A DNA stretch of 64,000 nt from an uncultured Oligoflexia bacterium. Its GTDB lineage: Bacteria > Bdellovibrionota > UBA1018 > CAZJVD01. This document shows positions 26,154 through 47,954 of the stretch, piece after piece (the first letter of the stretch is position 1; every line of letters starts with the position of its first letter). The notes under the pieces were generated by a model, which saw only the letters and a program-made list of their open reading frames with translations, was not told where the DNA came from and made no database searches. The stretch is from contig CAZJVD010000005.1 of the NCBI GenBank assembly GCA_964549505.1, positions 64,618-128,617 on the forward strand. Reading direction: 5' to 3'. Both the position numbers and the translations under genes were made by a program.

Positions 26154-26162
26154 TCATCCGCC

Positions 26163-29860: not shown

Positions 29861-29895
29861 CAGCTTTGCGCCCGATTCTACAGGGCCTGAGTATT

Positions 29896-29922
29896 TAATC
29901 AATACTTTTTAGTATTAATTTG
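29896..29922. promoter_or_regulatory. AT-rich imperfect inverted repeat (AATCAATACTtttttAGTATTAATT) in the divergent suf/lipoprotein promoter region
   Basis: Seen directly. 9 of 10 bases match between the arms with a 5-bp spacer, 36-60 bp upstream of the sufU-like ATG. A candidate operator for an unidentified repressor. Confidence 0.35.
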
Positions 29923-29988
29923 ATTTTGCCCCCCAAAGACCCGCCTTATCGTAAACTTAAGCAGTATTGAACCTGAAAGGATCCCCGA

Positions 29989-31414: not shown

Positions 31415-32062
31415 TCAATCCTCTTTCAACTCGGTCACGACGCGGTTGGAAATCTCATCTCGATCGTCACTACGCCTTGGAAAATAACGAGCGAGCTTCT
31501 CACCGGTGTTGAGTACAGCCGTTTCAATGGCCTTTGGAAGATCCTTGTTAAGACCCTTTCCCAAAAGACGAATCTCATCGTTCCAATACTCAGTACCTAC
31601 CTTTTCGTGAATTCCACGGTCCGCCAGAATCTCCACTCTTCGTTCCAGTAAGGACACGTACAAGAGAACAGCCGCGCGATCGCGGGTTTCGAAAAGACCG
31701 AGGGTCGCAAACTGTTCGAGACAGGCTCGGTGTACAACCTCACGTGCCCAATGATCCCACACCAACCAACGCCTGAACGCCGGAATGACAGGAAGAACAG
31801 ATCCAATGGCAGCGCCCACGGTCTGAAAAATCAAGAGGCCACGAACACCCGCGTCCCAAAACAGGTTCTGTCCCGCCAGTAAAAAAATTCCTGAACCCAA
31901 AATAAAGCCAAGGAAAGCTGAAAACCAGTACGAGAACATGTAGTGGCTGCTGGCACCCACGACTTGCACCACGATCTCACCGCTCGTACGCAGCTCCGCC
32001 TTTTGAACGGCTGCTTCAATAATCGCAAGCTCTGCTTCCGAAAACACACGCTTCTTTACCAT
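31415..32062 (-). CDS. TPM-domain (formerly DUF477) membrane protein
   Basis: Start taken at MVKKRVFSEAELAIIEAAVQKAELRTSGEIVVQVV, a TPM-like N-terminus. The ATGGTAA overlap with the upstream TPM gene indicates translational coupling. Confidence 0.65.
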   Translation of the reverse strand: MVKKRVFSEAELAIIEAAVQKAELRTSGEIVVQVVGASSHYMFSYWFSAFLGFILGSGIFLLAGQNLFWDAGVRGLLIFQTVGAAIGSVLPVIPAFRRWLVWDHWAREVVHRACLEQFATLGLFETRDRAAVLLYVSLLERRVEILADRGIHEKVGTEYWNDEIRLLGKGLNKDLPKAIETAVLNTGEKLARYFPRRSDDRDEISNRVVTELKED

Positions 32063-32838
32063 CGCGACGACGCCCCTCCTCCACCAAAACCTCCGCCAAA
32101 ACCTCCACCCCCGAACCCGCCGCCTCCGAATCCACCGCCCCATCCCCCACCACCCGGACCTCGTCGGCCCCAACCGAAACCTGTTCTGGGCTGAAGACGC
32201 GAACCAGTGAAAATGCGAAGGACGAGAAAGAAGATCAACAAGAAGAAGAACCATCCCATTCCAGAAAATCGCACCGTCTTACGAGGCGACGTCCGAGCAC
32301 CACCCTCAGTCGGTACCCCAAGTTTCTCGGCCATCGCCTCCAGACCAGCGACGACAGCCTGACCGCGGTACCCGTTACGCAAGAGCGGTACGATGTGATC
32401 GGACAGAATACGCTTTGCTTCCACGTCGGTAATGAATTCTTCAAGCCCGTAGCCGACCTCGAGTCGGAGCGCGCGGTCGGAGGGAACCACGACCAACACA
32501 AAACCACGATCGGACTTCTTGTCGCCCAGCTTCCAGGCGTCAGCGACCTTGATCGCGAACTCTTCGACGGACATGCCACGCGTGTCGGCCGCGATCAGCA
32601 CGACACCTTGTGCGTTCGCACGTTCACGCAGCTCGGTTAAAGTCGACACAATGGCGGAACGATCGCCACCCGAAAGCCACGCGATCTCCTCCACCACAGG
32701 GCCGGTCATAGGACCTATGACACTTGGAACCGGCGGCTGATCGGCGAGTGCAAGCGCACTCAGAAACACCCACGCGCCGCACAGGCCCCATATTCTGCAC
32801 CACATTCTATTGATGAACCTAGCGCCCCTTTGTACCAA
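32056..32838 (-). CDS. TPM-domain protein (YgcG-like) with a C-terminal transmembrane segment and a Gly-rich (GGGFGGG)n tail
   Basis: A signal peptide, then SVIGPMTGPVVEEIAWLS..VVLIAADTRGMSVEEFAIKVADAWKLGDKKSDRGFVLVVV (TPM core). The tail is GWGRRGPGGGGWGGGFGGGGFGGGGFGGG. Confidence 0.75.
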   Translation of the reverse strand: MVQRGARFINRMWCRIWGLCGAWVFLSALALADQPPVPSVIGPMTGPVVEEIAWLSGGDRSAIVSTLTELRERANAQGVVLIAADTRGMSVEEFAIKVADAWKLGDKKSDRGFVLVVVPSDRALRLEVGYGLEEFITDVEAKRILSDHIVPLLRNGYRGQAVVAGLEAMAEKLGVPTEGGARTSPRKTVRFSGMGWFFFLLIFFLVLRIFTGSRLQPRTGFGWGRRGPGGGGWGGGFGGGGFGGGGFGGGFGGGGASSRW

Positions 32839-33438
32839 CTAAAACGCCACTTTCGGTGCCTGAGCAGCTCCCTGCTCCGCTGAAAAAGACTCGCGTACAT
32901 TCAAATGTAGAAGATATTTTGCTGTGAGATTCGTCGGAAAGTGACGAACCAGTTCGTTGTACTCCTTGATGGACTCAGCAAAGCGAACGCGCGCCACATT
33001 GATACGATTCTCAGTTCCTTCTAATTGTGCCTGGAGATCCCGAAAGTTCTCGTTAGCTTTGAGATCGGGATACTTCTCGACCACAACCAAAAGACGGCCG
33101 AGAGCTGAGCTCACGCTCGACTGAGCATCCGTATACTTCTTGATCGCCGCCGGATCTCCGACTTGCTCGGCTCGAAGGCCACCACCGCTGGTCGCCTGAA
33201 GCGCTTTGGTGCGCGCTTCCATCACCGCCGTAAGCGTATCTTTTTCATGCTTGGCGTAACCTTTTACGGTTTCCACAAGATTGGGGATCAAATCAAAACG
33301 GCGTTGGTAAGCAGCTTCGACGGTGGACCACGACTGTTTGACGGCTTCGTCGGCTGATTGCAAACGATTGTACCCACAACCACTTAAGATAACGAGTGCA
33401 GCAAACACACTCAGAGACAGCAGTTTCTTTGTTTTCAT
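32839..33438 (-). CDS. lemA: LemA-family protein
   Basis: MKTKKLLSLSVFAALVILSGCGYNRLQSADEAVKQSWSTVEAAYQRRFDLIPNLVETVKGYAKHEKDT is the LemA signature. The LemA then TPM-family gene order is classic. Confidence 0.85.
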   Translation of the reverse strand: MKTKKLLSLSVFAALVILSGCGYNRLQSADEAVKQSWSTVEAAYQRRFDLIPNLVETVKGYAKHEKDTLTAVMEARTKALQATSGGGLRAEQVGDPAAIKKYTDAQSSVSSALGRLLVVVEKYPDLKANENFRDLQAQLEGTENRINVARVRFAESIKEYNELVRHFPTNLTAKYLLHLNVRESFSAEQGAAQAPKVAF

Positions 33439-33474: not shown

Positions 33475-36400
33475 TTAATCTTCGGGGTTTGCGCGCAGAC
33501 TCTCGGCGAGTTCGTCGTACAGAGCGCGCTGCCACGAAAGCAGGGCTTCAGGCTTCACGGCTTTTGCTTCTTGCGAAGCCACGCTGCGGTACCCATGGCG
33601 CCAAGCTGCACGCGCTAAAAACAGATGAACCGCATCGGCATACTTTGGATTTTTTTCCGCGACCTTCAGCAGTGGAGCCGCGGTCCAAGGATCACCCAGA
33701 GCCAGTCGCATAAACCCTATCAGGAAACTTCGGTCTTCGAGGGACTCATTTGAGTACGCTACGTACTCCGCTGCTGCCCATCCGCCTTTTTGAATGAACT
33801 GATAGACCTTATTAAGTCCCGAGGTCTTTTTCCCTTCGCGTTCGGCTTTTTCGAAGGCCGCTTCGAGCGCGAAGAGATCGTCCGCTTGATCTGGAACGTC
33901 TGGAAAGCACGGCATCTGATCGCACAGCGGTGGCTTCGCCTTTTCCAGAGGTGGCATGTAAACGAGTTGCTCGCGTTCGCGATCACAAACATTCTTTTCT
34001 TGATTGTAGATCGACTTCATCTCGACAATCTTTGAGTCGATCTTCTTTACAAAGTCCGGCCACTGTTTACTTTCAATGACGGGGCTCTTCATGAAAACAA
34101 GTCGGTCCACTGCATCTTTCTGAATCTTTGCAGCGGCGCAAAGGGCTGTGATTGTCACCTGAGGAACACCGGTATTGAGAAACTTTTTGAGCTCGTCCTT
34201 GCTGGCACCCAGATCTTTGAGTGTTTCAGCGACACGATCGAGTCGCGATCGAAGCTGTTGTGCTGCCGGACCACTGTCGGATGCTGGTTTACGATCGTTC
34301 GCCCATTTTGCTGACGGGAGCTTACTCACATCGAGGCCACTCTCCATCACGCGCATCCAAAGAGGCTGGAGAACACCCACGCCTCGAAGCGTTTCGGCGT
34401 TGGCCTGCAGATAAACCTTGATCTCGTCGTACACGGGATGCTTATCCCGAAGTGTTTGGAGATAAACATCGCGCATCAGAATCCACACCGGCGCTTCAGC
34501 TTTCTTTGGATCCAGGAGCGGCTTCAAAGACGCCCATGCCGATTGATAGATCTTGTTCCAATAGTACATCCGCGCGATGGTAAGACGGTTCTTTGACTCA
34601 AAGAGAAAGGGAGCTTTCCGTTCAAGGAGAATCGCGATCTGCTCTTTCGTCTTCTTGGGTTCGTAGTAGCTTCCGTACAACAGCATGGCTTCCCAACGAA
34701 TAAGATCGTGCTTGGGATGATCGGGATACACAGCAAGTCCCTGCACTAAGGCATCCGCGCGATGGACCATCTGTCCGAGGCTCTCCCATGCTTTTGCTTC
34801 TTGCATGAAAATTTGAAACACGAGTTCCGATGAATTCTTATCGAGACCCGGGCGCGCAACGCCAGAGGCCTTGAACCGTTCGAGCTCCTTGAAAAATTCT
34901 TCTGATTCGGCTGGCAACTTATACGTGACCAAAAGGTTGTGCCAACTCTTCACCGTCACATCAGATGCAGTGCTAGAGCCCGTAGCTCGTGCGTACCATG
35001 CCCTTGCCTCGACCGAGTTCTTTGCCTTCTCTTCTTTGAAAGCAGCCTGGAAGGCCGCTTCCTGACGAATGCTTTTAACTTGTTTCAGGAACTCTGCGCT
35101 CTTTGCATCGCCCTTCTTAGAGACGATTTCGGCGACAGCGTCGGAGGATAGGAATGCTTCTCTCCACTGCTCGTCTTTATACAAGCGCTTGTTATGCGAA
35201 AAAAACTGTTCTTCGTGGTGCTTGTCCACTCCATCGCGATCGAAGAGCATCACGAGAACGTTACGCGCACGCTCAAACTGCGAAGCGTAAAACAGCGACT
35301 CAAGAACCAGAAACTCAGCAAGGGTCTTATCTTTCGACTTTGGAAACTGCTGAATATACCACTCGGCACCTTCAGCGACTTTCACGTAATCGTCCGCGCC
35401 GACTCCCTTTTGGTTCGCCAACTTCTGCGATACTTCCTTGAGAAGCCGAAGAACACTCAACGCAGCATCGTCACGGTTTTCGTAGCCTTGAATCTCAGCC
35501 GCGCGACGATACCAGGCCAACGCATCGACGGTTTGCTTGAGTTGTTCCTTGCGTTGCGCCCCGTAGTACCAGAGATGACCCTCTTTAGAGTTAGGATAGT
35601 GACTGAGAAACGAAGCGTACAGTTCGTCCGTGGCTTTCCAGATATCGCGATCGTCGGTCTTCTTCGCTTCTTTGTGAATCGTCAGAAGAAGTGCCACGAT
35701 CTTGCTTTCGAGATCGTCGCCCTCTTTGCTGTCCTTCGGAAGTTTCGGCAGATACTCTTTGAGAGCAAGTGGCATCAGCTCTCGTTTGCCAGCGGCCAAT
35801 AGTGTGTAGAGCAACTCGTTCATCCAGAGGTACGAACGCGTGTCGCTCGGAGTTTTGAGCAAGATACTCCACACGGATATCGAGTCTTCAAATCGTCCGA
35901 TTTTTTTGTAGACCAACGCGAGACGTTCACGAGCCCGAATTTTGTCATCCGCTGTCCACCCAAAAATTTCGAGTTCTTGAAGCGCATCTTTGAAGCTGGC
36001 CTGCTCTGCCAACATCATGAGCATGTCCTGTCGCGCCTCGCGCGCTAAACTACCCGGAAGATCCGCTTGGTCACGATGACGTTGATAGTGAAGCACAAGA
36101 CGCTCGAGGTGACGAAGAGCAGCCCACTTCTTTTCCTGGTTGTAGAGAACCCACGATGCCTTGTAGACGCCATACGCCGACTTTTCGGGGTTGCCCAGTT
36201 GGGCAAGCAATCGATAGTTCACGATGGCTTTCTCAAAGTTTGCATCGTCAAAGTAGTAGTCCGCTAAGATCTGAAAAACGTCGGCGCGGTACACCCCATT
36301 GGGATAGAGCTCGCTGAACCTGTTTAAGAACGGAATCGCCTCGCGCGTTTTCGTCTGTTCCCACAAGCAAGCAATATAGAGGAAGGCAGCGTCTTCCGGT

Positions 36401-37638
36401 AAGGACGCTCTTCCTTTTTCAACCATGGCATTAATGATGGGTCTAAGAAGATTCTCGGCGATTCGAAGCGCTTCCTGAGACTGCGTCTTGTACTTGGTCG
36501 GGTCTTCGACACGATAGACGCTGGCCAGATGCCAGTGAAGTTCCGCGCCCAGGTGCACGACCGCTCCGTCGCGCGCTGAATCGGGTATCCTTTTGTAGAG
36601 ATCCACAAGCTTCGAAAGGGCCCCGAGACGTGTCTTAAAATCCCCAGTTGCCGCTTGCTTGTCGACATAGTGGTCAAATCCAGTTTCAACTAAGAACTTT
36701 TCTCGCAGCACTTCAAGAGCGTTTGGAACAAGTGCGTGTTCAGCCCGCGCGAAAGCTCGTTCTTTATCGCCGCTCCGCGAGAGCGTGAAAGCTTCGATGA
36801 GCGCGAGCTCACCTCGCTCACCGTCACGCATACGCTTTTCAACATCGTGAGCGGCATCCAACGCGCGTGTCAACTCCTCCGTACGTGTGTGCGTTCCCAA
36901 GGCGAGTAAAGACCAAAGACGTCCGAGCGATGCAGCAGGTGCGAAGGCCGAGTTTTCAGGAATCGCTTCAAAGTAGACGAGCGCTTCATCGAATCGCTTC
37001 TTTTGGTAGTAGGCGCGACCCAGTAAAATGTACGCTAACTCACGCCACAGTTCGTACGGGCCAACTGTCCCGACATACAACTGAGCGGGAGCGCCCGAAC
37101 CACCCGAAACATAAAGAGGATCAAAGCGTGACTCGGACAGGAGAAGCTCAAGGTTCTCAATGACGACGTCGGCTTTTCCTTCGAACTCGTGATCAAGCGC
37201 TTCAAGGGTCACACGCACGGGGTAGTCCGGGCTCTGCTTGCCAATCGGCCAGGACTTTAGCGCCTTCTTGAGAGTGTCGGTTGTATCGAGCCAAGTCGCC
37301 AGATCCGACATCTGAAGGGGGCGGACGATCTCTGCTACTTTTTCTGGTGCGTTTTCTGTCACTCTTTTCGCCACCGTGTTCGAAGGCGCCGCTGACGAGA
37401 CCACCGACGGATAGACCTCGGGTTTGTTAGCTGGCTTTGTGACGGGTTTTGCGCCCTTTGAAATCTTTTTCTGAACGGTCTTTTTCTGAGAATTTTGCTT
37501 TGGCGCCGGCTTTACAGGTCGTTTCGCTGCCGATTTTGCTTTTGCCTTGCTGACGGGCTTCGCCGCATGCACGCTCGAAAGCGATAGACTCACGGCAACG
37601 GCCATAGCTGCTACGACGCCGGCGAGACACCTCATCAC
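33475..37638 (-). CDS. giant (1387 aa) secreted TPR-repeat protein with a Lys/Ala/Pro-rich N-terminal region
   Basis: Signal peptide AMAVAVSLSLSSVHA, then KPVSKAKAKSAAKRPVKPAPK. It shows TPR-like periodicity throughout (LG/AY/YY helical hairpins). Its start overlaps the stop of the GYF-PilZ gene by 4 bp. Confidence 0.6.
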   Translation of the reverse strand: MMRCLAGVVAAMAVAVSLSLSSVHAAKPVSKAKAKSAAKRPVKPAPKQNSQKKTVQKKISKGAKPVTKPANKPEVYPSVVSSAAPSNTVAKRVTENAPEKVAEIVRPLQMSDLATWLDTTDTLKKALKSWPIGKQSPDYPVRVTLEALDHEFEGKADVVIENLELLLSESRFDPLYVSGGSGAPAQLYVGTVGPYELWRELAYILLGRAYYQKKRFDEALVYFEAIPENSAFAPAASLGRLWSLLALGTHTRTEELTRALDAAHDVEKRMRDGERGELALIEAFTLSRSGDKERAFARAEHALVPNALEVLREKFLVETGFDHYVDKQAATGDFKTRLGALSKLVDLYKRIPDSARDGAVVHLGAELHWHLASVYRVEDPTKYKTQSQEALRIAENLLRPIINAMVEKGRASLPEDAAFLYIACLWEQTKTREAIPFLNRFSELYPNGVYRADVFQILADYYFDDANFEKAIVNYRLLAQLGNPEKSAYGVYKASWVLYNQEKKWAALRHLERLVLHYQRHRDQADLPGSLAREARQDMLMMLAEQASFKDALQELEIFGWTADDKIRARERLALVYKKIGRFEDSISVWSILLKTPSDTRSYLWMNELLYTLLAAGKRELMPLALKEYLPKLPKDSKEGDDLESKIVALLLTIHKEAKKTDDRDIWKATDELYASFLSHYPNSKEGHLWYYGAQRKEQLKQTVDALAWYRRAAEIQGYENRDDAALSVLRLLKEVSQKLANQKGVGADDYVKVAEGAEWYIQQFPKSKDKTLAEFLVLESLFYASQFERARNVLVMLFDRDGVDKHHEEQFFSHNKRLYKDEQWREAFLSSDAVAEIVSKKGDAKSAEFLKQVKSIRQEAAFQAAFKEEKAKNSVEARAWYARATGSSTASDVTVKSWHNLLVTYKLPAESEEFFKELERFKASGVARPGLDKNSSELVFQIFMQEAKAWESLGQMVHRADALVQGLAVYPDHPKHDLIRWEAMLLYGSYYEPKKTKEQIAILLERKAPFLFESKNRLTIARMYYWNKIYQSAWASLKPLLDPKKAEAPVWILMRDVYLQTLRDKHPVYDEIKVYLQANAETLRGVGVLQPLWMRVMESGLDVSKLPSAKWANDRKPASDSGPAAQQLRSRLDRVAETLKDLGASKDELKKFLNTGVPQVTITALCAAAKIQKDAVDRLVFMKSPVIESKQWPDFVKKIDSKIVEMKSIYNQEKNVCDREREQLVYMPPLEKAKPPLCDQMPCFPDVPDQADDLFALEAAFEKAEREGKKTSGLNKVYQFIQKGGWAAAEYVAYSNESLEDRSFLIGFMRLALGDPWTAAPLLKVAEKNPKYADAVHLFLARAAWRHGYRSVASQEAKAVKPEALLSWQRALYDELAESLRANPED

Positions 37639-38519
37639 GCCACCTCCCTTGTCGCTCGCGGTGCGTGCGCAAGTTCGTGCATGACAAACTCGGCAATCTG
37701 CCTGCGTAGCTTCGGACTCATACGGAGAAAGAATAAGCCAACACCCTTCTTGCCATCGTGATTGAGCACACGAATCACAACTGTCGAAACCGAGAATGTT
37801 CCGATGCCAGGGACACCCCGAAGCGTGACAACAAGCTCCTCTCCTTTTTCAAAAGGATCCTTCTCGTCCAAAAGAACGAAGACACCCTTTTCGGAGATAT
37901 CCGCACACCGCGCTGTGATCACACGTTTATGGTCGTGCAGAATAATCGGAACTTCGAGTGGAACACGCGGGTAACGGCGATAGTTGTTTTCTGTCGTGTA
38001 CTCACCGGGCTGGCGTGGTTCAGGACGTGGCTCAGGACGCGATTCGATGCGCTGGTGTGGTCGAACGGCGGGTTCAGGCCGAACAGGTTGGCGGCGTTGA
38101 ACTGTTTGGGGCACCTTTTGGGCCACCGTTTGCGGCGCTGGTTGTGGAGTCGGTCGAACAACGGGTTTTGAAACAGGTTTTGCCGCTGCTTTTGCCACAG
38201 GCGGCGGGGCAGTAACGGGCGCCGGAGACGACGCAGGCTTCGCGGGTTTAAAGCTCGGAGCGGGCGGAACAGGAACACTCAAAGTCGGTGGTCGCTTCTC
38301 CAGATTCTCGGTGAAGTCGACAACCTCAAAAATTCGTTTCCAGCTCTTCTCACCCGTCTGGGCCCAGAGAGAACAGTAGATAAACTCGTCAAAACGCAGC
38401 GTTCCCGCGCTCAACCGGCTTTGAATATCCTCGGTCCTATAAGGACCAACAGGATCTCCGGATTCCGAATCTGGCAGATACCAGCGTTTCTTTGGAGGTT
38501 TTTTTGATGTTGAGTCCAT
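37635..38519 (-). CDS. GYF_2 (DUF4339)-domain plus PilZ-domain protein with a Pro-rich linker; putative c-di-GMP receptor
   Basis: N-terminus WYLPDSESGDPVGPYRTEDIQSRLSAGTLRFDEFIYCSLWAQTGEKSWKRI (GYF_2 pattern). C-terminus RRYPRV (RxxxR) and DISEKGVFV (DxSxxG) PilZ motifs. Confidence 0.7.
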   Translation of the reverse strand: MDSTSKKPPKKRWYLPDSESGDPVGPYRTEDIQSRLSAGTLRFDEFIYCSLWAQTGEKSWKRIFEVVDFTENLEKRPPTLSVPVPPAPSFKPAKPASSPAPVTAPPPVAKAAAKPVSKPVVRPTPQPAPQTVAQKVPQTVQRRQPVRPEPAVRPHQRIESRPEPRPEPRQPGEYTTENNYRRYPRVPLEVPIILHDHKRVITARCADISEKGVFVLLDEKDPFEKGEELVVTLRGVPGIGTFSVSTVVIRVLNHDGKKGVGLFFLRMSPKLRRQIAEFVMHELAHAPRATREVA

Positions 38520-38701: not shown

Positions 38702-40303
38702 ATGAGGGACTTCCGAGGACTCTTCTTCATTATTGGTATCGCTTCATTACCCGCGCTGGGTGGCGCCGGGTTCCGCCTTGCGTCCGCCGCCGACGCGAGC
38801 TTCGGTTTTTACTTCGACACGAAAACACAGCGCTACTTTGCGAGCAACGTGTCGCGCTTCCTCTCCCGCTCTGGAAAGAACCCAAACATGGGGTTGCTTG
38901 AAGTGAGTGTCAACGGCAGCGCCTTTGAGACATTTGACGGTACGATCGACTTTGGTGAAGAAGGAAACTATGAAGTTCGTTTCCGAACCCCCGACACAAA
39001 GCTGAGCTGGACGCCTGTCCAAGAGTTCAGCGTTTGGGTGGACCTCACCCCTCCGGAAAGTGCACCGACCTGGCAGGGCGCAGTTTTTGAACGGGACGGA
39101 AAGACGTTCGTCACAAGTAAGTCGGCTCTGACCGTTCAGGCTCAAGACAATCTGTCCGGAGTGAAAAATATCTTTTGGAAGAAAAAAGAAGGACCGGCTG
39201 TTTTCCCTGCCAAACTACAGTTTCAAAAAGAAGGGCCCGTTGAGATCGAAGTTGCTGCCCGTGATTTTGTCGGCAATACAGAAGCCTTCTACCCTGTGCG
39301 CTTCGTCGTCGACAACACGGCTCCCGAAACATCTGCAGTGATTGAGGGCAAATCTCAAGACACGCAAGCGGGGCGCTTTATGGCGCGCGGAAGTCGTATC
39401 ACGCTCAAGGCTCGAGATGACGCTTCGGGCGCTGCACGCACCGAGTATCAGATCGGCAATGGACCCGTGACAGAATTTACGGCACCACTCCTGATCACCG
39501 AAAATAAAATGGAGCTCAAGTTTCGCTCGGTCGACAATGTCCAGAACGAGGAAGCTTGGAAAACGCTCTCCGTTCTTCAGGATAGCACTCCGCCGACGCT
39601 TGCTCTCAAACGTCAGGGACAGTTTATCGCTTTTGCAGGACGCACCTACGCAAAACCAGGATTCAAGTTAGCGCCCAGCGCTTCAGATCAAGGTAGCGGC
39701 CTTGAGCGGATCACTTACGCCTTAAACAAAGCTGGATTTCGAACACTCGAGAGCTCGGCTCTGGAGTTTCGTGACCCCGGTATCTTCGAAATTCGAATCG
39801 TTGCGCGTGACCGCATTGGCAACGAGGCAGAGAGCAGTCCAACGACCGTCGTGATCGACAACCAAGCTCCCGTCACAGAGCTCATCACGCAGCAAGCGTC
39901 CACAGACAAAGAAGGTGTTCTCCACACTCAGATTCCAAACCGAATTGAATTCGAGGCAAAAGACACAGGTATCGGCCTTGAACGCATCGAGTACAGTTAC
40001 GACGGTTCCGAATACAGCACATTTTCAAAACCCATCGACCTCAGTCTCTGGGAAACGTCCACACGTACAATGTTTTTTAGATCCGTTGACCGCCTCGGAA
40101 ACACCGAAGCTGCAAAAAAAGTGACGGTTTCCGTGGTCAACACCAAGCCGACCGTGGACCTCTTTGTCGAACAAGCATCCTTGCCGGAAGTTCCACTCTC
40201 GCGCCTGGAAGGCGGAGTGCCGAAAGTGCGTGAGCCGGCGTCCTCAAATCCTCGCGTCAAAGCGAAGTCCGCACCGGTAAAACGCAAAGGAGGTCGCCGA
40301 TGA
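38702..40303 (+). CDS. secreted protein with four tandem ~95-aa Ig-like (Big-type) domains and a basic C-terminal tail
   Basis: Signal peptide LFFIIGIASLPALGGAGF. Repeats are delimited by D(L/N/S)T(P/A)P(E/T), each containing a D-x-SG-x-x-x-I-x-Y motif (DNLSGVKNIFW, DDASGAARTEYQ, DQGSGLERITYA, DTGIGLERIEYS). Confidence 0.55.
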   Translation: MRDFRGLFFIIGIASLPALGGAGFRLASAADASFGFYFDTKTQRYFASNVSRFLSRSGKNPNMGLLEVSVNGSAFETFDGTIDFGEEGNYEVRFRTPDTKLSWTPVQEFSVWVDLTPPESAPTWQGAVFERDGKTFVTSKSALTVQAQDNLSGVKNIFWKKKEGPAVFPAKLQFQKEGPVEIEVAARDFVGNTEAFYPVRFVVDNTAPETSAVIEGKSQDTQAGRFMARGSRITLKARDDASGAARTEYQIGNGPVTEFTAPLLITENKMELKFRSVDNVQNEEAWKTLSVLQDSTPPTLALKRQGQFIAFAGRTYAKPGFKLAPSASDQGSGLERITYALNKAGFRTLESSALEFRDPGIFEIRIVARDRIGNEAESSPTTVVIDNQAPVTELITQQASTDKEGVLHTQIPNRIEFEAKDTGIGLERIEYSYDGSEYSTFSKPIDLSLWETSTRTMFFRSVDRLGNTEAAKKVTVSVVNTKPTVDLFVEQASLPEVPLSRLEGGVPKVREPASSNPRVKAKSAPVKRKGGRR

Positions 40304-40614
40304 GACAGATCCTCCTATCATTCATAATCGGTGTCTTCGCCCTCAGTGTACCACTCGCCGTACAAGCTGCTCCTAAAGCACGCGCGAAGGCCACCGCGTC
40401 TTCCGCCGACAAGAAGAAAAAGGTCATCTACCGCAAGTACACACAGCTCGATTTCACCGGCGAATCCGTACAGGGACAAGCGAAAGCCCCCGAGATTTTC
40501 TACGTCTTTCAACGCCGACGCGCTGGCGGTATCGAAGCTGCTCGCGCTCCCTCGTCGCTCAGCCACCAAAAGACCACGACCTTTAACGAATTGAAAGGAG
40601 CGCTCGTACCATGA
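40300..40614 (+). CDS. small secreted Lys-rich hypothetical protein
   Basis: Signal peptide FIIGVFALSVPLAVQA. ATGA overlaps on both sides indicate translational coupling. Confidence 0.4.
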   Translation: MRQILLSFIIGVFALSVPLAVQAAPKARAKATASSADKKKKVIYRKYTQLDFTGESVQGQAKAPEIFYVFQRRRAGGIEAARAPSSLSHQKTTTFNELKGALVP

Positions 40615-42362
40615 GTGGGCTAGCTCTTTTCTTACGAGATCCGGTCTATAAGTCGGAACGTTTCGTCAGCAGCATTGGAACGCGCTCGGTGGTCGGCAAT
40701 AGCAAAGACGTTCAAATCTTCGTCGACGACATCCGCTGCAGCCCCGTCCACGCACTGCTCGAAGCTCAAGCCGATGGAAACCGTGTGACGGTCATCGATC
40801 TAGGGAGCCGGTTTGGTACCTACACCCAAAAAGGTGCTCGTGTTCAAGAACACACGATCGCCGTTGGCGAGTCGATTGTTATTGGCAGCCAAACGCTCGT
40901 TCTTCGCCCGACACCCAAAGATGATCCGTCTCAAGTCGCCATGAGCGATCGCTCGAAAGCAAAACCTGTCGCCACGGCCAAATCGGGAGACATCGGCCTC
41001 ATCACCGATCGAACCCTTCTTCAAGCCACGCTCTTTTGGGGAGAACAACCGCTCGAGGTACGAACGTTCGAGTCCGGATCTGATCTCACCGTCGGTCCTC
41101 AGAAGCACGCAACCTTCTGTGTGAGCCTCATGGACTCGCGCTTTCACGGCGCACCGTTTGCGATTGCGCACTATGCTCAGAACGAACTTCTCCTGAACGT
41201 TCCGCCTGAAATGTCGGGACTCATCTGGGTCGGCCAGGATCCCATAGCGCTGGATACTTTACGCAATAAGGCTCCTCCAACACGTGACAATCCAGAACTC
41301 AAAGTCCGACTGCGTCTCGGAGATCGTGCGGAACTGCATCTCGGCGAACTGACGCTCAGTTTCGTGTTCGTCAATCCGTCTGAGAAAATCCCGACTCCGG
41401 TCTTTCGAGTGACGGACCAGATCCTTCTGCGCGTTTTTATATTCATGATGGCATTTTACGGGCTTGTTTTTGTCGCTCTCAACGCCATCACACCGGAGGA
41501 AGAGCCAACCACACTCAAAGATGTTCCGAAACATCTCAAACGCGTGGTCATGGATGCCGGTATTGCGCAGGCCATGAAAAAACAACGTGCCGCAATCGGT
41601 GAGCTCGCGATGAATAACGAAGGCGGACGCGCGCGCGGAGAAGAAGGACGCGCTAAGGCGGAAAACAATCCTCGTGAAGCCGAAGCTCAACAGAACAAGG
41701 CGATGCAGCAAAAAGCGTTGCCCAAAAAAGCTGGCGATACGAAAGTTGCACAACAGCAAGAACAAGAGGCTGATCTCGATCTGGATGCGGCATTCAACAG
41801 CACGACGAAGAAGGCCCTTTCGGGCAGCGTCTCCGTGGTCGGAAAGCGCAGCGACGGTAACACCGCAACGGCACTTGCCGACGGCGGTTTTGCGCGCGGC
41901 CGCGTAGGCGAAGGAAGCGGTGGCGGCGGACAGAGTGTGGGTATAGGAGCGCTCAGCGGGCTCAGTACCGGCGGCGGCATGGGATCAGGAGACTACGGTC
42001 TCAGTCCTTCGAAAGGTCGCGAAATCAAAATTCCTGAAGGCGAAGAACTCGTGATTCTCGGTGGATTGGACCCCGATGTCATCGCGAGCATTATAAAACG
42101 TTACCTGCCGCAGATTCGTCACTGTTATGAAACTCAGCTCAGTCAGAACTCGCATCTTAAAGGCAAGGTCGGCGTGTCGTTTGTGATCGGACCGAACGGT
42201 AACGTTCAGAACGCAACGATCTATGAAAGCTCTCTGAACGAGCGCAACACAGAGGCGTGCATCATCAGTAAAGTTAAAGGCTGGAATTTTCCTAAACCAC
42301 GAGGTGGGGGAACCGTCGGCGTACGGTATCCGTTCCTCCTCATGTCCACACAGGACAAGTAA
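40611..42362 (+). CDS. FHA-domain / single-transmembrane / TonB C-terminal-domain protein (TonB- or TolA-like energy transducer with a cytoplasmic FHA head)
   Basis: The N-terminal FHA block is RSVVGNSKDVQIFVDDIRCSPVHALLEAQADGNRVTVIDLGSRFGTYTQKG. The transmembrane segment is ILLRVFIFMMAFYGLVFVALNAI. A Lys/Gln/Glu-rich linker follows. The C-terminal KGKVGVSFVIGPNGNVQNATIYESSLNERNTEACIISKVKGWNFPKP matches the TonB_C fold. Confidence 0.7.
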   Translation: MSGLALFLRDPVYKSERFVSSIGTRSVVGNSKDVQIFVDDIRCSPVHALLEAQADGNRVTVIDLGSRFGTYTQKGARVQEHTIAVGESIVIGSQTLVLRPTPKDDPSQVAMSDRSKAKPVATAKSGDIGLITDRTLLQATLFWGEQPLEVRTFESGSDLTVGPQKHATFCVSLMDSRFHGAPFAIAHYAQNELLLNVPPEMSGLIWVGQDPIALDTLRNKAPPTRDNPELKVRLRLGDRAELHLGELTLSFVFVNPSEKIPTPVFRVTDQILLRVFIFMMAFYGLVFVALNAITPEEEPTTLKDVPKHLKRVVMDAGIAQAMKKQRAAIGELAMNNEGGRARGEEGRAKAENNPREAEAQQNKAMQQKALPKKAGDTKVAQQQEQEADLDLDAAFNSTTKKALSGSVSVVGKRSDGNTATALADGGFARGRVGEGSGGGGQSVGIGALSGLSTGGGMGSGDYGLSPSKGREIKIPEGEELVILGGLDPDVIASIIKRYLPQIRHCYETQLSQNSHLKGKVGVSFVIGPNGNVQNATIYESSLNERNTEACIISKVKGWNFPKPRGGGTVGVRYPFLLMSTQDK

Positions 42363-42380: not shown

Positions 42381-43448
42381 ATGGATAAACTGATTACATA
42401 CTTCCAAGAAGGCGGGCTGATCATGTGGCCGGTCCTTATTCTGTTGATCATCGGCTGGACGGTGATCGCGGAACGGATCTACATGGTTCTGTTTGTTTAC
42501 AACGCCGATGGGGCCATGCTGATGCAGAAGCTTCAGCGGCTGATCCTCGATAACAATCTTAACGAAGCGATCAAGCTCTGTAACAGCAACAAGAAAGCTG
42601 CCGTTTATCAAGTGCTCAAGGCAGCACTCGTCAACGCGGACCGACCTTTCGAAGAACTTCAAGGGCATGTTGAAGTCGCGACTCTAGGCGTTGTTCCCAA
42701 GCTTCAACATCGGATGACCTACTTGTTCTCGATTGCGAACACCGCAACCCTCATCGGTCTTTTAGGAACGGTTGTCGGTCTGATCGAAACGTTCGGTGCC
42801 GTCGCCGTGGTCGAAGGATCACAGAAACAGGAGATGATCTCAGGCGGTATCGCAACCGCTCTGAACGCAACGGCGTTTGGTCTCTTTGTCGCGATTCCGT
42901 GTATGCTCGCGTACGGATTTCTATACAACCGCATCAACGGTGTTATCGATGATGTTGAGCACTATTCAGCCCGACTTTTGATGCTGTTGCGCACCGGCCG
43001 CGAGTACTTCGAAAACTATACTGTCGATAAGACTGTTTCGACGGAACAGCGCCCAAAAATGGCGAAGAAGAAGTCCCCTATTCCGCCTTCTCTAGGCGGT
43101 GGAGCCGCGGCTCGAGCACCAGCCCCAGCTCGCCCCAAGGCTCAGGCCCGTCCAGTCGCACAGCCCGTTCGGGGCGGCACCAATCCGTCGATCGCTCGCG
43201 GTTACACACACTCTGGGATCCATGCAGCGCCTCATCTCGCTCAGCCTCCGGTTTCACCACCTGTTGTCGAGGAAACGGCCGACGAGCAGCTGGAGGAAAC
43301 AGGTACGTACGTTGAACGCGACGATGTCGGATACCACACCGTAGGTGCCAGCGCGGATGACGCGGTCGAGGCACAGGAGCAGGAACAAGTCGACGAAGCT
43401 TACGAAGATGGCGGCGAAGACAGCGGAGACGACGAGAATGCAGCGTAA
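42381..43448 (+). CDS. MotA/TolQ/ExbB-family proton channel with a ~140-aa Pro/Ala-rich then strongly acidic C-terminal tail
   Basis: LIMWPVLILLIIGW..LFSIANTATLIGLLGTVVGLIETF..GIATALNATAFGLFVAIPCMLAYGFLYNRI are the TolQ/ExbB motifs. The tail ends ..EEQLEETGTYVERDD..EAQEQEQVDEAYEDGGEDSGDDENAA. Confidence 0.85.
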   Translation: MDKLITYFQEGGLIMWPVLILLIIGWTVIAERIYMVLFVYNADGAMLMQKLQRLILDNNLNEAIKLCNSNKKAAVYQVLKAALVNADRPFEELQGHVEVATLGVVPKLQHRMTYLFSIANTATLIGLLGTVVGLIETFGAVAVVEGSQKQEMISGGIATALNATAFGLFVAIPCMLAYGFLYNRINGVIDDVEHYSARLLMLLRTGREYFENYTVDKTVSTEQRPKMAKKKSPIPPSLGGGAAARAPAPARPKAQARPVAQPVRGGTNPSIARGYTHSGIHAAPHLAQPPVSPPVVEETADEQLEETGTYVERDDVGYHTVGASADDAVEAQEQEQVDEAYEDGGEDSGDDENAA

Positions 43449-44061
43449 ACGCAAAGAAATGATGCAGAGTGAGCTGACCATCATCTCCTTGATGGACGTG
43501 CTCACGACCCTGCTCTTCTTCTTGCTCGCAACTTCGTCTTTTTCGCAATTTGCGATCCTGACAGCGTCATCGATGTCTCAGAGTGCGTCTCCTCCCAAGG
43601 AAGACAAGCCGAAGTTCAGTCTTCAGATCGCGATGAGCTCGCCGAATGATGTTGCGATCTTTCTGGGTCCCGCGGCGAAACTTCCGATTCGTGACAAGGC
43701 CCGGCTCTATCAGTACCTGTCTCAGAATTTTAAGGGCAATGAGAACATCGGGTGGGTTCGTCAGATTCGCGGCCCTCAAGCACGTGAGGTTCTCGCCCGC
43801 GTACAGGAGACACTGAAGGTGATCAAACTTGGCTTTCCTCACGAAAACCAAGCGGTCGTGGTTTTTGCCGATCCCGTGCCCTATCAGGAAACCATTGAGG
43901 CGATCTCCGCCGTACGATCGTTGCCGGATACCGATCCTGGCTTTCGAATGGATAAGCTCACAGGGGGTTCCGAGCTCACACGCGTCCTTTTTCCTGAGAT
44001 CGTTGTGTCTGAAATGGAAGGCGATCTCCGCGTCGCCGGTCGACCCATGGGTAAGTCGTGA
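43438..44061 (+). CDS. ExbD/TolR-family protein (paralogue 1, extended C-terminus)
   Basis: MQRKRKEMMQSELTIISLMDVLTTLLFFLL is the ExbD N-terminal transmembrane signature. Its start overlaps the tolQ-like stop by 11 bp. Confidence 0.7.
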   Translation: MQRKRKEMMQSELTIISLMDVLTTLLFFLLATSSFSQFAILTASSMSQSASPPKEDKPKFSLQIAMSSPNDVAIFLGPAAKLPIRDKARLYQYLSQNFKGNENIGWVRQIRGPQAREVLARVQETLKVIKLGFPHENQAVVVFADPVPYQETIEAISAVRSLPDTDPGFRMDKLTGGSELTRVLFPEIVVSEMEGDLRVAGRPMGKS

Positions 44062-44615
44062 TGAGAAAGAAAAGCCTGATCAAGAGCACGCGCGGCCATC
44101 GTCATCATCCTGAGATGAGCATGAATATTACGGCCCTGATGGACATTCTCACGGTTTTGCTCTTCTTCTTGATCAAGAGCTACAACGTGTCGGCCTCGTC
44201 GTTGACACCGCCAAAGGACATCACGCTTCCAAAATCGCGTACCGAAGACAAAGCCGAGCAGTCGATCGTATTAGCCATCACAAAGACTGCTGTACTCCTG
44301 AATAATGACCCGATCGCCCAGCTGCAACAAGGCAACTTCGCTCGCCGTGACATTGCCGGAGACAACCGAACCGTTCTACCGATCAAAAAAATTCTCGATC
44401 AAGAGCAGAAAAAGCGCCTTGCGATCTACAAAGACGAAGGCAATCTCAGCTTCCTGCCACCGGGTAAGATCCTGATCCAGGCCGACTATAAGCTACCCTT
44501 TAACGTCCTGAAGTATCTCTTGCACACGGCTGCGATCAGCGGTTACTCCGACTATCAATTCGTTATCCAAAACGTGTCGCCAGGACCTGCTCCCGCCTCT
44601 GTTCCCAAAAAGTAA
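44061..44615 (+). CDS. ExbD/TolR-family protein (paralogue 2)
   Basis: MSMNITALMDILTVLLFFLI..SIVLAITKTAVLLNNDPI..NVLKYLLHTAAISGY. A 1-bp TGATG overlap with the previous gene. Confidence 0.7.
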   Translation: MRKKSLIKSTRGHRHHPEMSMNITALMDILTVLLFFLIKSYNVSASSLTPPKDITLPKSRTEDKAEQSIVLAITKTAVLLNNDPIAQLQQGNFARRDIAGDNRTVLPIKKILDQEQKKRLAIYKDEGNLSFLPPGKILIQADYKLPFNVLKYLLHTAAISGYSDYQFVIQNVSPGPAPASVPKK

Positions 44616-44717: not shown

Positions 44718-45560
44718 TTGAATGTGTTTCTTATCGCTTATGTGGGTAGGGAGTTTAAATTTGGAGCCAGAGAGTTGAACGCGCTCCGGGCCACGTTGTT
44801 TGGCCTGTTGTTCGCACTCGGTCAGACGTTGTTCGTTGTAAGCGGTTGGTGCGATCCCACTGAGAACGGCCTGCGTGCTTTGTCTGGTGGACCACCGCCG
44901 GGACGCGATCCGATTGTCCCGCAGGACCTCATCGCTGAGATCCGGCACTCACTACCTGAAAGCAAACTAAAGCTCGAACTCGAACGCATCGAGGAAACGC
45001 TCGATACGTTGCCAGCTAGCTTTGCGGAAGGCGAAGGACCAGCGCTTGAGAAACACCTCGGACGTCGGTTTGCCGAGACGCTTTTGAGGGCCCGCGTCCT
45101 TGATGCGATGGACATCGGTACGGCGGCAGCTGCAGAAGAGCAGCGTGAGAATGCTCGCGAGATCCTTCGAACGGCCCTTGCGGTAGCGATCCGTACCCAG
45201 TACGGACTGGACCGCCTCGCCGATAGCTTTAACTCCAAGCGACTTTTGGCCTACATGTTGGTCGAAGTGTTTACCGTTTCCGTCGCCATTATAGGCTCGA
45301 ACTACTACAAAGAAGTGGGAACCCTTCAGTCGCTGGTGCTCGCCCAGGCCATCGCTCTTGCGGCGATCTTGCCGGTACGCTGGTTCTTTCGAACCGTTAA
45401 GGTCTCACGGATGGATGCCCTGATGGATCACTTCTGGAAAGGTGTGAACGAACGAGGTCTTGAGATTCCCGATCGAAAGACATTTCTGAGAGAAACCCTC
45501 GGCATCCCGGAAGGCACTACTAATTGCCAGATTCTTTTAGGTCTCCGAAAACCCAGCTGA
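44718..45560 (+). CDS. hypothetical secreted protein (periplasmic, unknown function)
   Basis: The track start at 44718 is a TTG. A signal-peptide-like LNALRATLFGLLFALGQTLFVVSGWC begins about 44775 after a GGAGCCAGAGAG stretch. I recognised no domain. Confidence 0.4.
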   Translation: MNVFLIAYVGREFKFGARELNALRATLFGLLFALGQTLFVVSGWCDPTENGLRALSGGPPPGRDPIVPQDLIAEIRHSLPESKLKLELERIEETLDTLPASFAEGEGPALEKHLGRRFAETLLRARVLDAMDIGTAAAAEEQRENAREILRTALAVAIRTQYGLDRLADSFNSKRLLAYMLVEVFTVSVAIIGSNYYKEVGTLQSLVLAQAIALAAILPVRWFFRTVKVSRMDALMDHFWKGVNERGLEIPDRKTFLRETLGIPEGTTNCQILLGLRKPS

Positions 45561-45645
45561 ACGGGTGTCAAATAGACAGGTCCCGGAAACCCTGGCGAAA
45601 ACTGGCGCTTAGGTTCGATTTTTTACATGATATTGATTTAATAAA

Positions 45646-46917
45646 TTGTGGTATATACGGCGCGGTATGATTGCGTTGTTACTGTCTCTCCTTTTCACTC
45701 CACCAAGCCACGCCATCACACCTGTACGCATTTTCTATCTCCCGCTCTGGAGCCTGGTTCACGAAGACGTCCTCATTGATCGAGGGACTCGCCAGACCGA
45801 GGGCGCCGGCTGCACACGTTATCAATCCACGCTTCCAGGTCGCGCCGATCTTGGAAAGGGAGTGCTCCATCTCTGCCCCTGGTCGATCGATTATGTCATG
45901 GCCCTCGTGATCGCGGACTTCCTCTCACTCGACACGCGCTACTTCGGACACCCCGTGTTTCTACAAAGGGACGATCAGGTCCTTCGTGGCTTTTGGACCC
46001 CTATCCTCCCGCTGCTACGTGAGTCGCCTGAGGGGTCGCTGAGCGACCGTGCTCAGGCTGTTCAGAGCCTCACTCTTCGCACCAAGATCGAGATGATAGG
46101 ACAGATGCTTCTCTTGGGAGTCACGGGTCTCGATTCCTTCTGGGAGAACGAAGCTCCCCTTCAGGACCTCTTCGTCAAACCGCGTACCGCAGGACCCGAA
46201 CTTGTTTCTTTTACGATGACCCGACCTCGGTTCAACCGTATTCGCAGTGGAACAACGGACCCGGTAGAAGCTGGCAAACAATGGGCAAAAGATGCGGCCA
46301 GGGCGCTCAGCACCATTCAGTCGCTACTGCGCGATTCCAAGTTTCGTGAATCGCCAGAGTTCTTCGCACTGCGAAGACTCTTCAAGCGTCTCAGGCAGCT
46401 GCCTCAGCTCTTCGATGCCGACTCACCGATTCGGGACCTCGTTGACCGATGGAGCCAAGCTGCGGCGACTGAGCCGGGGGTAGTCTCCAGCTTCGAACTG
46501 AACGACACGGGGCAAGCCAGCTCCAGACGAGAAGCGACCTTTCCGTCATCAGATGAGGTCGTCACCGCCCAGTCGATCCAGGCAGAATACCGGGACTACG
46601 TAACGAAGTTTGCAAAAGCTGCTGAAACCGGCTTTGCACACGCATTCGACCTGGAAATATTTCCAGAAAGAGATTTTTTACAAGGTCTCACTTCGGAGAT
46701 TTCACAAAAGGCTCTTTGGACACTCAACAACCATGTCATGACATTTAGCACTGATCATCGTGGCGGCTCTGCCGAACTGCAACGACTTTGGCTCTCGATA
46801 CCCGATCGGCATTCGCATGCCATCAACCCCGAAGCCTGGACGACATTGCGCGCTCAAGCCAAGTGCGACGCCCGTCTCAAACCTCATCAAACGGGGCAGA
46901 AAACCCCAGAAGCATGA
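45646..46917 (+). CDS. hypothetical secreted protein
   Basis: Signal peptide MIALLLSLLFTPPSHA. 423 aa. No recognised domain. Confidence 0.45.
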   Translation: MWYIRRGMIALLLSLLFTPPSHAITPVRIFYLPLWSLVHEDVLIDRGTRQTEGAGCTRYQSTLPGRADLGKGVLHLCPWSIDYVMALVIADFLSLDTRYFGHPVFLQRDDQVLRGFWTPILPLLRESPEGSLSDRAQAVQSLTLRTKIEMIGQMLLLGVTGLDSFWENEAPLQDLFVKPRTAGPELVSFTMTRPRFNRIRSGTTDPVEAGKQWAKDAARALSTIQSLLRDSKFRESPEFFALRRLFKRLRQLPQLFDADSPIRDLVDRWSQAAATEPGVVSSFELNDTGQASSRREATFPSSDEVVTAQSIQAEYRDYVTKFAKAAETGFAHAFDLEIFPERDFLQGLTSEISQKALWTLNNHVMTFSTDHRGGSAELQRLWLSIPDRHSHAINPEAWTTLRAQAKCDARLKPHQTGQKTPEA

Positions 46918-47954
46918 ACGTCTCCCGGAGTGTCCTGGGCAGTTTCTTTCTCTCGGCTCTAGCCGGTTGTTTCACGTACTCAGAACCTGCTCGCCACCCG
47001 CAGATCGACGCTTATCTCATCAGAGAGTACGGGACCTCGGACTTACAAAAAACCCATTCACAGTACGCTGTATTTGAGACCGATGGCCCTAATGAGTTTC
47101 TAGAACTGGCGATCACACTCGCCGAGTTTCCTCGGGAACGCTTCCGCGTCGAACGGCCCGAAACGGGTAATGTGAAGATAGCGGTCAAACTTCTCGGCCA
47201 CTCGGATGCTGCGATCGATCAGTTTCGAGAAAGGCATGTCGCGAGCTCGGGACACCTGTTCGACATCACACCCGACATCTACTGCTACAAAGTGAACGAC
47301 GACGCCTCCAAGATCGCTGGCGTCTGCATCTATGAAGTGGTGGTCCTCATCCCAGAGACCTCAAACACGGCCGTCTCGATCAACGGTGAACGCGTGATGC
47401 GTCCCGCTGAAGTGTGGACTCGATCCGACCTCAAAGCTCGTCTCGCAAACCTTCTACCATCCGAAACGACCGAGCAGATCTTCGCGATCTATGTCGAATC
47501 GCAACGCGCAAAGCGCTTTCTCACGATGAACGATGTTCTCGAGACGATCGCTTGGATCGCAGCGGCTCCTTCACGATCGATGGACTCGACACCGTGGCGA
47601 ACCGTTATCGATCGTCTGACGGGTCATGTGACGGATCCTGAGAACAGTTTCCGTGCTGTCGTGCGGAAGTTAACAGACGATCCCGCGATGATCTTCCCCG
47701 TCGTTCCGTTCGTAGAGGCGTTCTCGGAACGTGGTTATCCTGTGCCATGGAGGGATGTGACCGACCTTATCAACACAATCGACCTGACACAGGCGTCGCT
47801 TCCGCTCATTGGAACCGCTCTCGGAACGTATCCGGACGACGGTCCGATCATCTCAGCAAACGATTTGGAAGCTCTTATGGCCGTGGAACGCAGGCGCCCT
47901 CAAGGACAAATGGAAACGATCCAACGCCTACTCGGGCATCGAGTCCTACGGTAG
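46914..47954 (+). CDS. hypothetical lipoprotein
   Basis: Start taken at MNVSRSVLGSFFLSALAGCF (lipobox LAGC). This ATG overlaps the upstream stop (ATGA). The track ORF from 46788 would overlap the previous gene by 130 bp. Confidence 0.5.
   Translation: MNVSRSVLGSFFLSALAGCFTYSEPARHPQIDAYLIREYGTSDLQKTHSQYAVFETDGPNEFLELAITLAEFPRERFRVERPETGNVKIAVKLLGHSDAAIDQFRERHVASSGHLFDITPDIYCYKVNDDASKIAGVCIYEVVVLIPETSNTAVSINGERVMRPAEVWTRSDLKARLANLLPSETTEQIFAIYVESQRAKRFLTMNDVLETIAWIAAAPSRSMDSTPWRTVIDRLTGHVTDPENSFRAVVRKLTDDPAMIFPVVPFVEAFSERGYPVPWRDVTDLINTIDLTQASLPLIGTALGTYPDDGPIISANDLEALMAVERRRPQGQMETIQRLLGHRVLR

Follow-up and report, generated by a model that had tools for sequence, protein, structure and literature searches.

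This analysis concerns a 64-kb stretch of contig CAZJVD010000005.1 (64,000 nucleotides, hereafter the window) from an uncultured Oligoflexia bacterium of the Bdellovibrionota, and within it an open reading frame (ORF) at 40611..42362 on the forward strand, which we call the gltG-like gene. It is the third gene of an operon with the order OmpL47-repeat, GltF-like, GltG-like, TolQ/ExbB-like, ExbD-like, ExbD-like. Judged by its sequence, the product is a divergent homologue of the GltG/PglI family rather than a certified equivalog. An earlier note on this DNA had described a cytoplasmic FHA domain joined through a single transmembrane segment to a periplasmic TonB C-terminal domain, and had proposed that the protein couples Ser/Thr-kinase signalling, or the recruitment of a cytoplasmic partner, to a transducer energised by the proton-motive force. 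The gene and the parts of its product are as follows.

40611..42362, +, gltG-like gene, 583 residues: FHA, FHA-like domain, transmembrane helix, linker and AgmX/PglI (TonB_C-like) C-terminal domain
40611..40922, +, residues 1-104: N-terminal FHA domain, cytoplasmic (Pfam FHA; Foldseek GarA/OdhI; confidence of the model, pLDDT, ~90)
41007..41375, +, residues 133-255: central all-beta FHA-like domain, directly before the transmembrane helix (pLDDT ~90; Foldseek FHA matches)
41418..41486, +, residues 270-292: single transmembrane helix (sole strongly hydrophobic 19-residue stretch; helix in AlphaFold2)
41529..41618, +, residues 307-336: conserved periplasmic juxtamembrane helix (helix in AlphaFold2; many invariant positions)
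41619..42053, +, residues 337-481: disordered linker, low in Pro (pLDDT <50)
42054..42344, +, residues 482-578: AgmX/PglI C-terminal domain with the TonB/TolA fold, periplasmic (NF033768; Pfam TonB_C; Foldseek)

The N-terminal FHA domain is borne out by family models and by predicted structure. Pfam FHA (PF00498) matches residues 27-92 with 37.3 bits against a cut-off of 20.7 (E 3.8e-9), and a Foldseek search of the full AlphaFold2 model, for which a 38-sequence alignment was the input, returned the FHA domains of GarA and OdhI from the PDB at E ~4e-8, with a structural (TM) score to the target of ~0.8. A profile built from 38 homologues matches the same two solved FHA domains (E ~1e-10) and, at ~1e-3, solved TonB C-terminal domains (6i97_D, E 9e-4). 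Residues 105-131, which follow the FHA domain, form a disordered linker of low pLDDT in the model.

The C-terminus likewise adopts the TonB_C fold claimed for it. In the AlphaFold2 model residues 483-578 are arranged ααββαβ with a pLDDT of ~90. Scanned within the whole protein, Pfam TonB_C (PF03544) matches residues 514-561 with 23.7 bits, just below its cut-off of 24.6; scanned on the last 107 residues alone, the match rises above it (27.4 bits). In a separate model of residues 131-583, Foldseek paired this domain with the C-terminal domain of Helicobacter pylori TonB (6sly, E 3.7e-4), FusB, TonB of Escherichia coli and Pseudomonas aeruginosa, and TolA-III.

Between the two ends lies the one membrane crossing that the earlier note had placed there: the helix at residues 270-292 is the only hydrophobic one, with the protein's maximum Kyte–Doolittle hydropathy (2.39) at residue 271. 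The alignment of this helix contains no conserved Ser or His of the TonB ‘SHLS’ type and no conserved polar residue. The juxtamembrane region that follows is far more constrained, with invariant or near-invariant P306, G317, A321, A328, I329 and G330 and, past the helix, G338-R340. The linker beyond it had been described as rich in Lys, Gln and Glu rather than Pro. Its low Pro content stands, but Gly is its commonest residue (19%), ahead of Ala (12%), Glu (9%), Ser (8%), Lys (8%) and Gln (6%), and Gly is likewise abundant in the corresponding region of myxobacterial GltG.

The second, degenerate FHA-like stretch reported behind the first fared less evenly. Residues 131-583 were modelled separately, so that any FHA match must derive from the central domain; Foldseek then returned the FHA domains of 4h87 (E 6e-3) and 3gqs (E 1.7e-2, TM score 0.58), within a set that comprised the kanadaptin, CT664, Mek1 and Dun1 FHA domains together with SMAD/IRF3-type domains (E 6e-3 to 0.1). 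Scanned alone against Pfam, the central domain gave no match even at E <= 10, and profile–profile alignment with hhalign found no in-register or significant match between it and the first domain, which speaks against a sequence repeat of domain 1. The predicted fold, together with homology to the central domain of GltG, thus weakly suggests a second FHA-like domain.

Homology to GltG

Such a fusion is not a new device. GltG of Myxococcus xanthus (PglI, MXAN_4867, 640 residues) was described by Luciano et al. (2011; PMC3169522) as Pfam FHA plus TonB_C with one transmembrane helix, and FHA–transmembrane–TonB_C is the published, defining architecture of the GltG family (PMC3169522, PMC11761067), to which the window protein is homologous over its full length. 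A 2017 commentary grouped GltG and GltJ as ‘modular TolA/TonB-like proteins’ (PMC5349195).

The NCBIfam model for GltG, NF033760 (gliding_GltG), matches residues 136-579 on model positions 203-647 with E 1.8e-65 and 221.7 bits, a score far under its 650-bit equivalog cut-off. The model for the AgmX/PglI C-terminal domain, NF033768, scores 101.7 bits over residues 486-577 (cut-off 40; E 1.8e-29), and that for GltJ/AgmX, NF033761, matches residues 491-575 (E 3.7e-9). We compared the protein directly with GltG of a complete Myxococcaceae genome whose locus (L068) has the canonical order gltD-gltE-gltF-gltG-gltH; the GltG of this locus scores 1031.5 bits on NF033760, and its GltE, GltF (CglF) and GltH (CglE) also exceed their own cut-offs. 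In BLASTP the C-terminal domains are 43% identical (E 4e-25) and the N-terminal FHA domains 33% identical (E 1e-10). The two proteins are collinear throughout, running from the FHA domain through a disordered linker, the central domain, the transmembrane helix, a Lys/Glu/Gln-rich helix and a Gly-rich disordered tract to the C-terminal domain. A ‘FWGEQ/SWGDQ’ motif in the central domain is common to the gltG-like protein and myxobacterial GltG, and both C-terminal domains start ‘LD.(D/E).I...I.R....I..CYE.QL’.

A family profile retrieved 1,769 cluster representatives at E <= 1e-30 from a library of 1.84 billion proteins, many of them full-length (590-750 residues). The closest relatives are proteins from metagenome-assembled genomes of Bdellovibrionota and Bacteriovoracia, named ‘AgmX/PglI C-terminal domain-containing’ or ‘TonB family’. 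Because the nearest of these database relatives is only 53% identical, we regard the lineage as divergent.

Domain order is identical in M. xanthus GltG, which is part of the Agl–Glt bacterial focal-adhesion machinery, and homology extends across its N-terminal FHA, central and C-terminal domains. The likeness extends to linkage with gltD-like, gltF-like, TolQ/ExbB-like and two ExbD-like motor genes. There are differences as well: identity to myxobacterial GltG is only 33-43% in the two best-conserved domains, and the FHA domain of the window protein lacks an Arg kept by all 20 orthologues. GltJ (AgmX) of M. xanthus shares the AgmX/PglI C-terminal domain and the single-pass topology, but has ZnR and GYF cytoplasmic domains instead of FHA; in the window a GYF-like domain is found on a separate, soluble PilZ protein next door. 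A motif scan of the window for a second protein with an AgmX/PglI tail, of the GltJ type, returned only the gltG-like gene.

The operon and its neighbours

The genes that surround the gltG-like gene and are conserved with it are listed here in the order of their coordinates.

33475..37638, -, GltD-like periplasmic TPR protein, 1387 residues, signal peptide; divergent from the operon
37635..38519, -, GYF-like domain, Pro-rich linker and PilZ domain (58.8 bits); cytoplasmic, 294 residues; divergent from the operon
38702..40303, +, secreted protein with four OmpL47-type beta-barrel repeats (NF047446, 178 bits), signal peptide, 533 residues; first gene of the operon
40300..40614, +, gltF (cglF)-like small secreted protein, 104 residues, signal peptide; 4-nucleotide overlap with the gltG-like gene
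42381..43448, +, MotA/TolQ/ExbB-family channel protein, AglR-like, 355 residues (Pfam MotA_ExbB, 91.5 bits)
43345..44061, +, first ExbD/TolR-family protein, AglQ/AglS-like (Pfam ExbD, 27.7 bits); transmembrane Asp kept (‘SLMDVL’)
44058..44615, +, second ExbD/TolR-family protein, AglQ/AglS-like (Pfam ExbD, 43.9 bits); transmembrane Asp kept (‘ALMDIL’)

Four-nucleotide overlaps recur inside the operon. The ATG of the gltG-like gene shares 4 nucleotides with the upstream stop codon (ATGA), with AGGAG close 5′ of it, and the gene belongs to a translationally coupled operon. Just upstream, the GltF-like protein matches NF033764 with E 4.4e-5, under the cut-off of that model, and the Myxococcaceae GltF in BLASTP with E 2e-5. 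Just downstream, the AglR-like protein has TolQ as its top NCBIfam match, under its cut-off; its residues ~215-355 comprise a ~130-residue low-complexity C-terminal tail, Pro/Ala-rich and then strongly acidic. This tail appears to be lineage-specific, because relatives align over residues 1 to ~230 only. The first ExbD-like ORF is listed with a GTG start and overlaps the AglR-like gene by ~100 nucleotides; because homologue alignments begin near residue 30, its true start is probably a later one, an ATG at 43438-43459. The presence of two ExbD paralogues, both with the transmembrane Asp, resembles the AglQ/AglS pair.

On the opposite strand, the GltD-like protein is 23% identical to the Myxococcaceae GltD over ~300 residues (BLASTP, E 3e-16) and also has TPR and YbgF-like matches. 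The GYF–PilZ protein next to it has intact RxxxR (‘RRYPR’) and DxSxxG (‘DISEKG’) motifs for binding cyclic di-GMP (c-di-GMP), and a Pro-rich linker of ~100 residues behind the N-terminal GYF-like domain. The Pfam GYF_2 model scores 14.9 bits in the window protein and 27.9 bits in an orthologue from another Bdellovibrionota locus (L001), against a cut-off of 25.8.

Conservation of this arrangement was assessed by tblastn of the cluster proteins against 79 loci that encode relatives, nine of which (L001-L009) are from Bdellovibrionota. The order OmpL47-repeat, GltG-like, AglR-like, ExbD, ExbD is identical in all nine; the AglR-like protein is 55-67% identical in the same nine, over its aligned part. 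A GltF-like match lies upstream of the gltG-like gene in seven of the nine, the divergent GYF–PilZ gene in six of the seven whose upstream sequence is long enough, and a GltD-like gene in five. In many Myxococcota loci a GltD-like gene precedes gltG by 5-6 kb in the same orientation. The OmpL47-repeat gene, always the first of the operon in the Bdellovibrionota loci, occupies the position where Myxococcus has gltE. The exception among the GYF–PilZ loci is L009 (Bdellovibrionales), where positions 1-4700 hold unrelated genes in place of the GltD-like and GYF–PilZ pair, among them two ORFs that by eye resemble a HEPN/nucleotidyltransferase pair and one of 403 residues that carries a P-loop motif. 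The upstream edge of the operon may thus have undergone an insertion or rearrangement.

Relative to M. xanthus, where the G1 and M1 clusters are separate, the gltG-like gene shares one operon with the motor genes, and gltE, gltH, gltI and gltJ are absent from its vicinity, with conserved OmpL47-repeat and GYF–PilZ neighbours instead. Another putative counterpart, by published description, is found in the expanded core clusters of Bdellovibrio bacteriovorus (e.g. Bd0828-0838; Luciano et al., 2011), which is of the same phylum-level lineage and whose clusters hold GltD/F/G-type and AglRQS-type genes.

Downstream, tblastn found no synteny in the relatives for ORFs beyond 44615, and we have left the ORFs at 44718-47954 out of the system because they are not syntenic. 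NCBIfam gliding-protein models gave no matches on the ORFs at 46788-47954, 55101-56165, 56179-60828 and 60825-62873. On its other side, the GltD-like gene adjoins a run of iron–sulfur and haem housekeeping genes on the reverse strand (24916-33438: Nfu/NifU, an Mrp/NUBPL-type ATPase, SufB/D, NifU_N and ferrochelatase, then two ORFs with TPM-domain matches, one of them weak, and LemA), which shows no synteny with the cluster in other loci of the family. Further away, a reverse-strand FecR-domain gene (54129-54995) is followed by a forward-strand set up to 62873 that is unrelated to the gltG-like cluster and encodes a 354-residue protein without a family match, a 1549-residue Kelch-repeat protein (56179-60828) and an overlapping 682-residue protein without a family match.

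A putative force-transducing machine

We observe here the domain architecture, the homology to GltG and a conserved operon structure. The explanation we favour, with considerable confidence, is that the gltG-like protein belongs to the GltG/PglI family and acts as a TolA/TonB-like force transducer in an envelope-spanning, proton-driven machine of the Agl–Glt type in a Bdellovibrionota genome. Two-hybrid assays and deletion mutants have shown, for M. xanthus only, that GltG interacts with AglR and is required for gliding, and a conserved ‘core complex’ joins GltG with GltD, GltE, GltC and AglR/Q/S; B. bacteriovorus has four expanded core sets (PMC3169522). In 2025, modelling of an AglR5QS–GltG complex had the transmembrane helix and the central FHA domain of GltG bind the pentamer, and the N-terminal FHA domain was predicted to bind the TPR scaffold GltI (PMC11761067).

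Carrying this interaction and this complex over from Myxococcus, we propose the following steps because of the homology with Tol/Ton systems and the modelled AglR5QS–GltG complex. The transmembrane helix and the juxtamembrane FHA-like domain would dock on a TolQ/ExbB-type pentamer of the adjacent AglR-like protein, which would carry a heterodimeric ExbD-like axle of the AglQ/AglS kind. Proton flow through this motor would cause a conformational change in the gltG-like protein, and the resulting work would presumably pass along the conserved helix 307-336 and the G338-R340 motif and reach the TonB_C-like domain through the Gly-rich, flexible tract. This domain may engage partners in the periplasm or outer membrane, for which the GltD-like, GltF-like and OmpL47-repeat proteins are candidates. 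The N-terminal FHA domain would tether the protein to a partner or scaffold in the cytoplasm independently of phosphorylation, rather than read out a kinase. By analogy, the output in this organism is likely to be surface motility of the gliding type or a related envelope function.

Several observations weigh against this explanation. The NF033760 score lies under the equivalog cut-off and so does not establish that the protein is functionally equivalent to M. xanthus GltG. The similarity on which the GltF-like gene is named is weak (E ~1e-5). Of the proteins needed for gliding in Myxococcus, neither the window nor the conserved block yielded GltE, GltC, GltA/B or the adhesin CglB; the gltG-like gene is adjoined there by the GltD-like, the weak GltF-like, the TolQ/ExbB-like and the two ExbD-like genes, without a GltE or GltC homologue. 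Luciano et al. state that motility is not driven by the core complex alone, which non-gliders possess as well (PMC3169522), and according to a 2026 review the gliding machinery of Bdellovibrio is still unidentified (PMC13104615).

Some of these points bear on a different reading of the output, in which the Glt-like core complex has a non-motility role comparable with the Myxococcus Nfs spore-coat system or with Tol–Pal-like envelope maintenance. Paralogous Glt-like clusters with non-motility functions are known, as is the core in non-gliders (PMC3169522), and GltK is missing from the conserved block along with GltA/B/C/E and the adhesin. We nevertheless think a non-motility role unlikely. A GltF-like gene is part of the block, and gltF is one of the group A genes, which occur only in Myxococcales and Bdellovibrionales (PMC3169522); gliding is proven for Bdellovibrio, which has several Glt-type clusters (PMC3169522, PMC9140294); and the absent components may sit elsewhere in the genome, as in M. 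xanthus with its G1, G2 and M1 clusters. This reading differs from the force transducer of a motility machine in cellular output only; the molecular mechanism is the same.

The FHA pocket and the GYF–PilZ neighbour

As to kinase coupling, we tabulated the phosphothreonine-pocket residues of the FHA domain in the register of GarA for 38 members of the subfamily and for 20 Myxococcota GltG orthologues.

‘GR’ Arg position: Asn in the window protein; K17, R8, T6, S3, N2, A1, Q1 in the subfamily (n=38); Arg in 20/20 Myxococcota GltG
‘SxxH’ Ser position: Ser in the window protein; Ser in 17/38 of the subfamily; Ser in 16/20 Myxococcota GltG
‘NG’ Asn position: Phe in the window protein; Y17, F15, S4, N1, A1 in the subfamily (n=38); Glu in 19/20 Myxococcota GltG

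The conserved FHA residues that the earlier note had expected are therefore kept only in part: those of the G-R and N-G motifs are missing from the window protein, while the fold and the S-x-x-H residues, both Ser and His, are retained. Across the subfamily the scaffold residues (Gly, His, D-x-G-S and G-T) are invariant or nearly so. Because the contact residues drift while the scaffold is fixed, the phosphate-binding pocket does not appear to be under selection in the Bdellovibrionota subfamily. Going by these alignments, its N-terminal FHA domain has lost phosphate-binding residues that myxobacterial GltG keeps, and the two lineages may use the domain differently.

This bears directly on the proposed coupling. 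A cytoplasmic, partner-recruiting module mounted on a transducer energised by the proton-motive force remains a reasonable description, but the link to a Ser/Thr kinase is poorly supported. In its explicit form, a Hanks-type kinase with its gene elsewhere would generate the phosphothreonine that the FHA domain binds, and Ser/Thr phosphorylation would gate the transducer. The domain is a bona fide FHA domain by family model and fold, it keeps the Ser and His of SxxH, and the GR Arg persists in eight of the 38 subfamily members as well as in all the Myxococcota orthologues; moreover, Bdellovibrio is known to use an FHA–phosphothreonine switch in DgcB (PDB 6hc0, among the fold matches). On the other hand, the contact Arg has become Asn and the conserved Asn Phe, and both positions drift. 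As the earlier note had said, there is no Ser/Thr kinase in the window: Pfam identified neither a Hanks kinase nor a PP2C phosphatase among the ~48 ORFs scanned, a six-frame scan of the 64 kb for the kinase catalytic-loop motif was empty, and neither protein is found in the conserved cluster of the relatives. The published model of GltG, finally, has its FHA domain bind the TPR protein GltI, as predicted without a phosphorylated partner (PMC11761067). We therefore consider gating by phosphothreonine quite improbable; of the readings of the FHA domain it is the less likely one, and phospho-signalling is probably wrong.

TolA and TonB themselves allow a further comparison. The gltG-like protein shares with them a single pass through the inner membrane, a putative partner motor of the MotA/TolQ/ExbB–ExbD/TolR 5:2 type, a long periplasmic spacer and a C-terminus of the TonB/TolA fold. 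It differs in that ~270 cytoplasmic residues, with two FHA-type domains, precede the transmembrane helix, in that the SHLS-type motif and a Pro-rich or long TolA-II helical spacer are missing, and in having two distinct ExbD paralogues and neither a TonB-dependent receptor nor Pal/TolB in the neighbourhood. That it is an ordinary TonB paralogue, energising TonB-dependent outer-membrane nutrient transporters with the adjacent ExbB–ExbD–ExbD, is extremely improbable, and we reject it: the C-terminal fold matches TonB C-terminal domains, the isolated domain passes Pfam TonB_C and ExbB/ExbD-family genes lie directly downstream, but the best families are GltG and the AgmX/PglI tail, with the TonB model TIGR01352 reaching only 22.8 bits against a cut-off of 27.1, the spacer is not Pro-rich, the transmembrane helix lies behind two cytoplasmic domains and carries no conserved Ser/His motif, no scanned window ORF has a TonB-dependent receptor or Plug domain (TonB_dep_Rec), and the neighbours are GltD-like and GltF-like.

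Returning to the GltG-type transducer, we regard its GYF–PilZ neighbour as the most interesting remainder of the analysis. To judge from its motifs and its position, this protein could provide a c-di-GMP input to the machine, or could stand in for GltJ's GYF domain, which is missing in Bdellovibrio; it could thereby link c-di-GMP to such a machine in organisms without GltI and GltJ. The literature searched held no paper that names GYF, PilZ and gliding together. A bolder and rather doubtful extension is that the eight conserved genes (GltG-like, the AglRQS-like motor genes, GltF-like, GltD-like, OmpL47-repeat and GYF–PilZ) form a compact, self-contained, c-di-GMP-gated engine of surface motility, in which the phospho-independent N-terminal FHA domain docks the soluble GYF–PilZ protein or its Pro-rich linker instead of the Myxococcus GltI/GltJ platform. 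If true, such an engine would offer a concrete candidate for the machinery with which Bdellovibrio-like predators glide.

The architecture itself adds little, as FHA–transmembrane–TonB_C is the GltG design already published. The value of the gltG-like locus is comparative, in that it shows the Glt/Agl core of uncultured Bdellovibrionota arranged as a compact operon. Its conserved neighbours, the undescribed GYF–PilZ and OmpL47-repeat proteins, could help to identify how Bdellovibrio-like predators glide, which the 2026 review lists as an open problem (PMC13104615).

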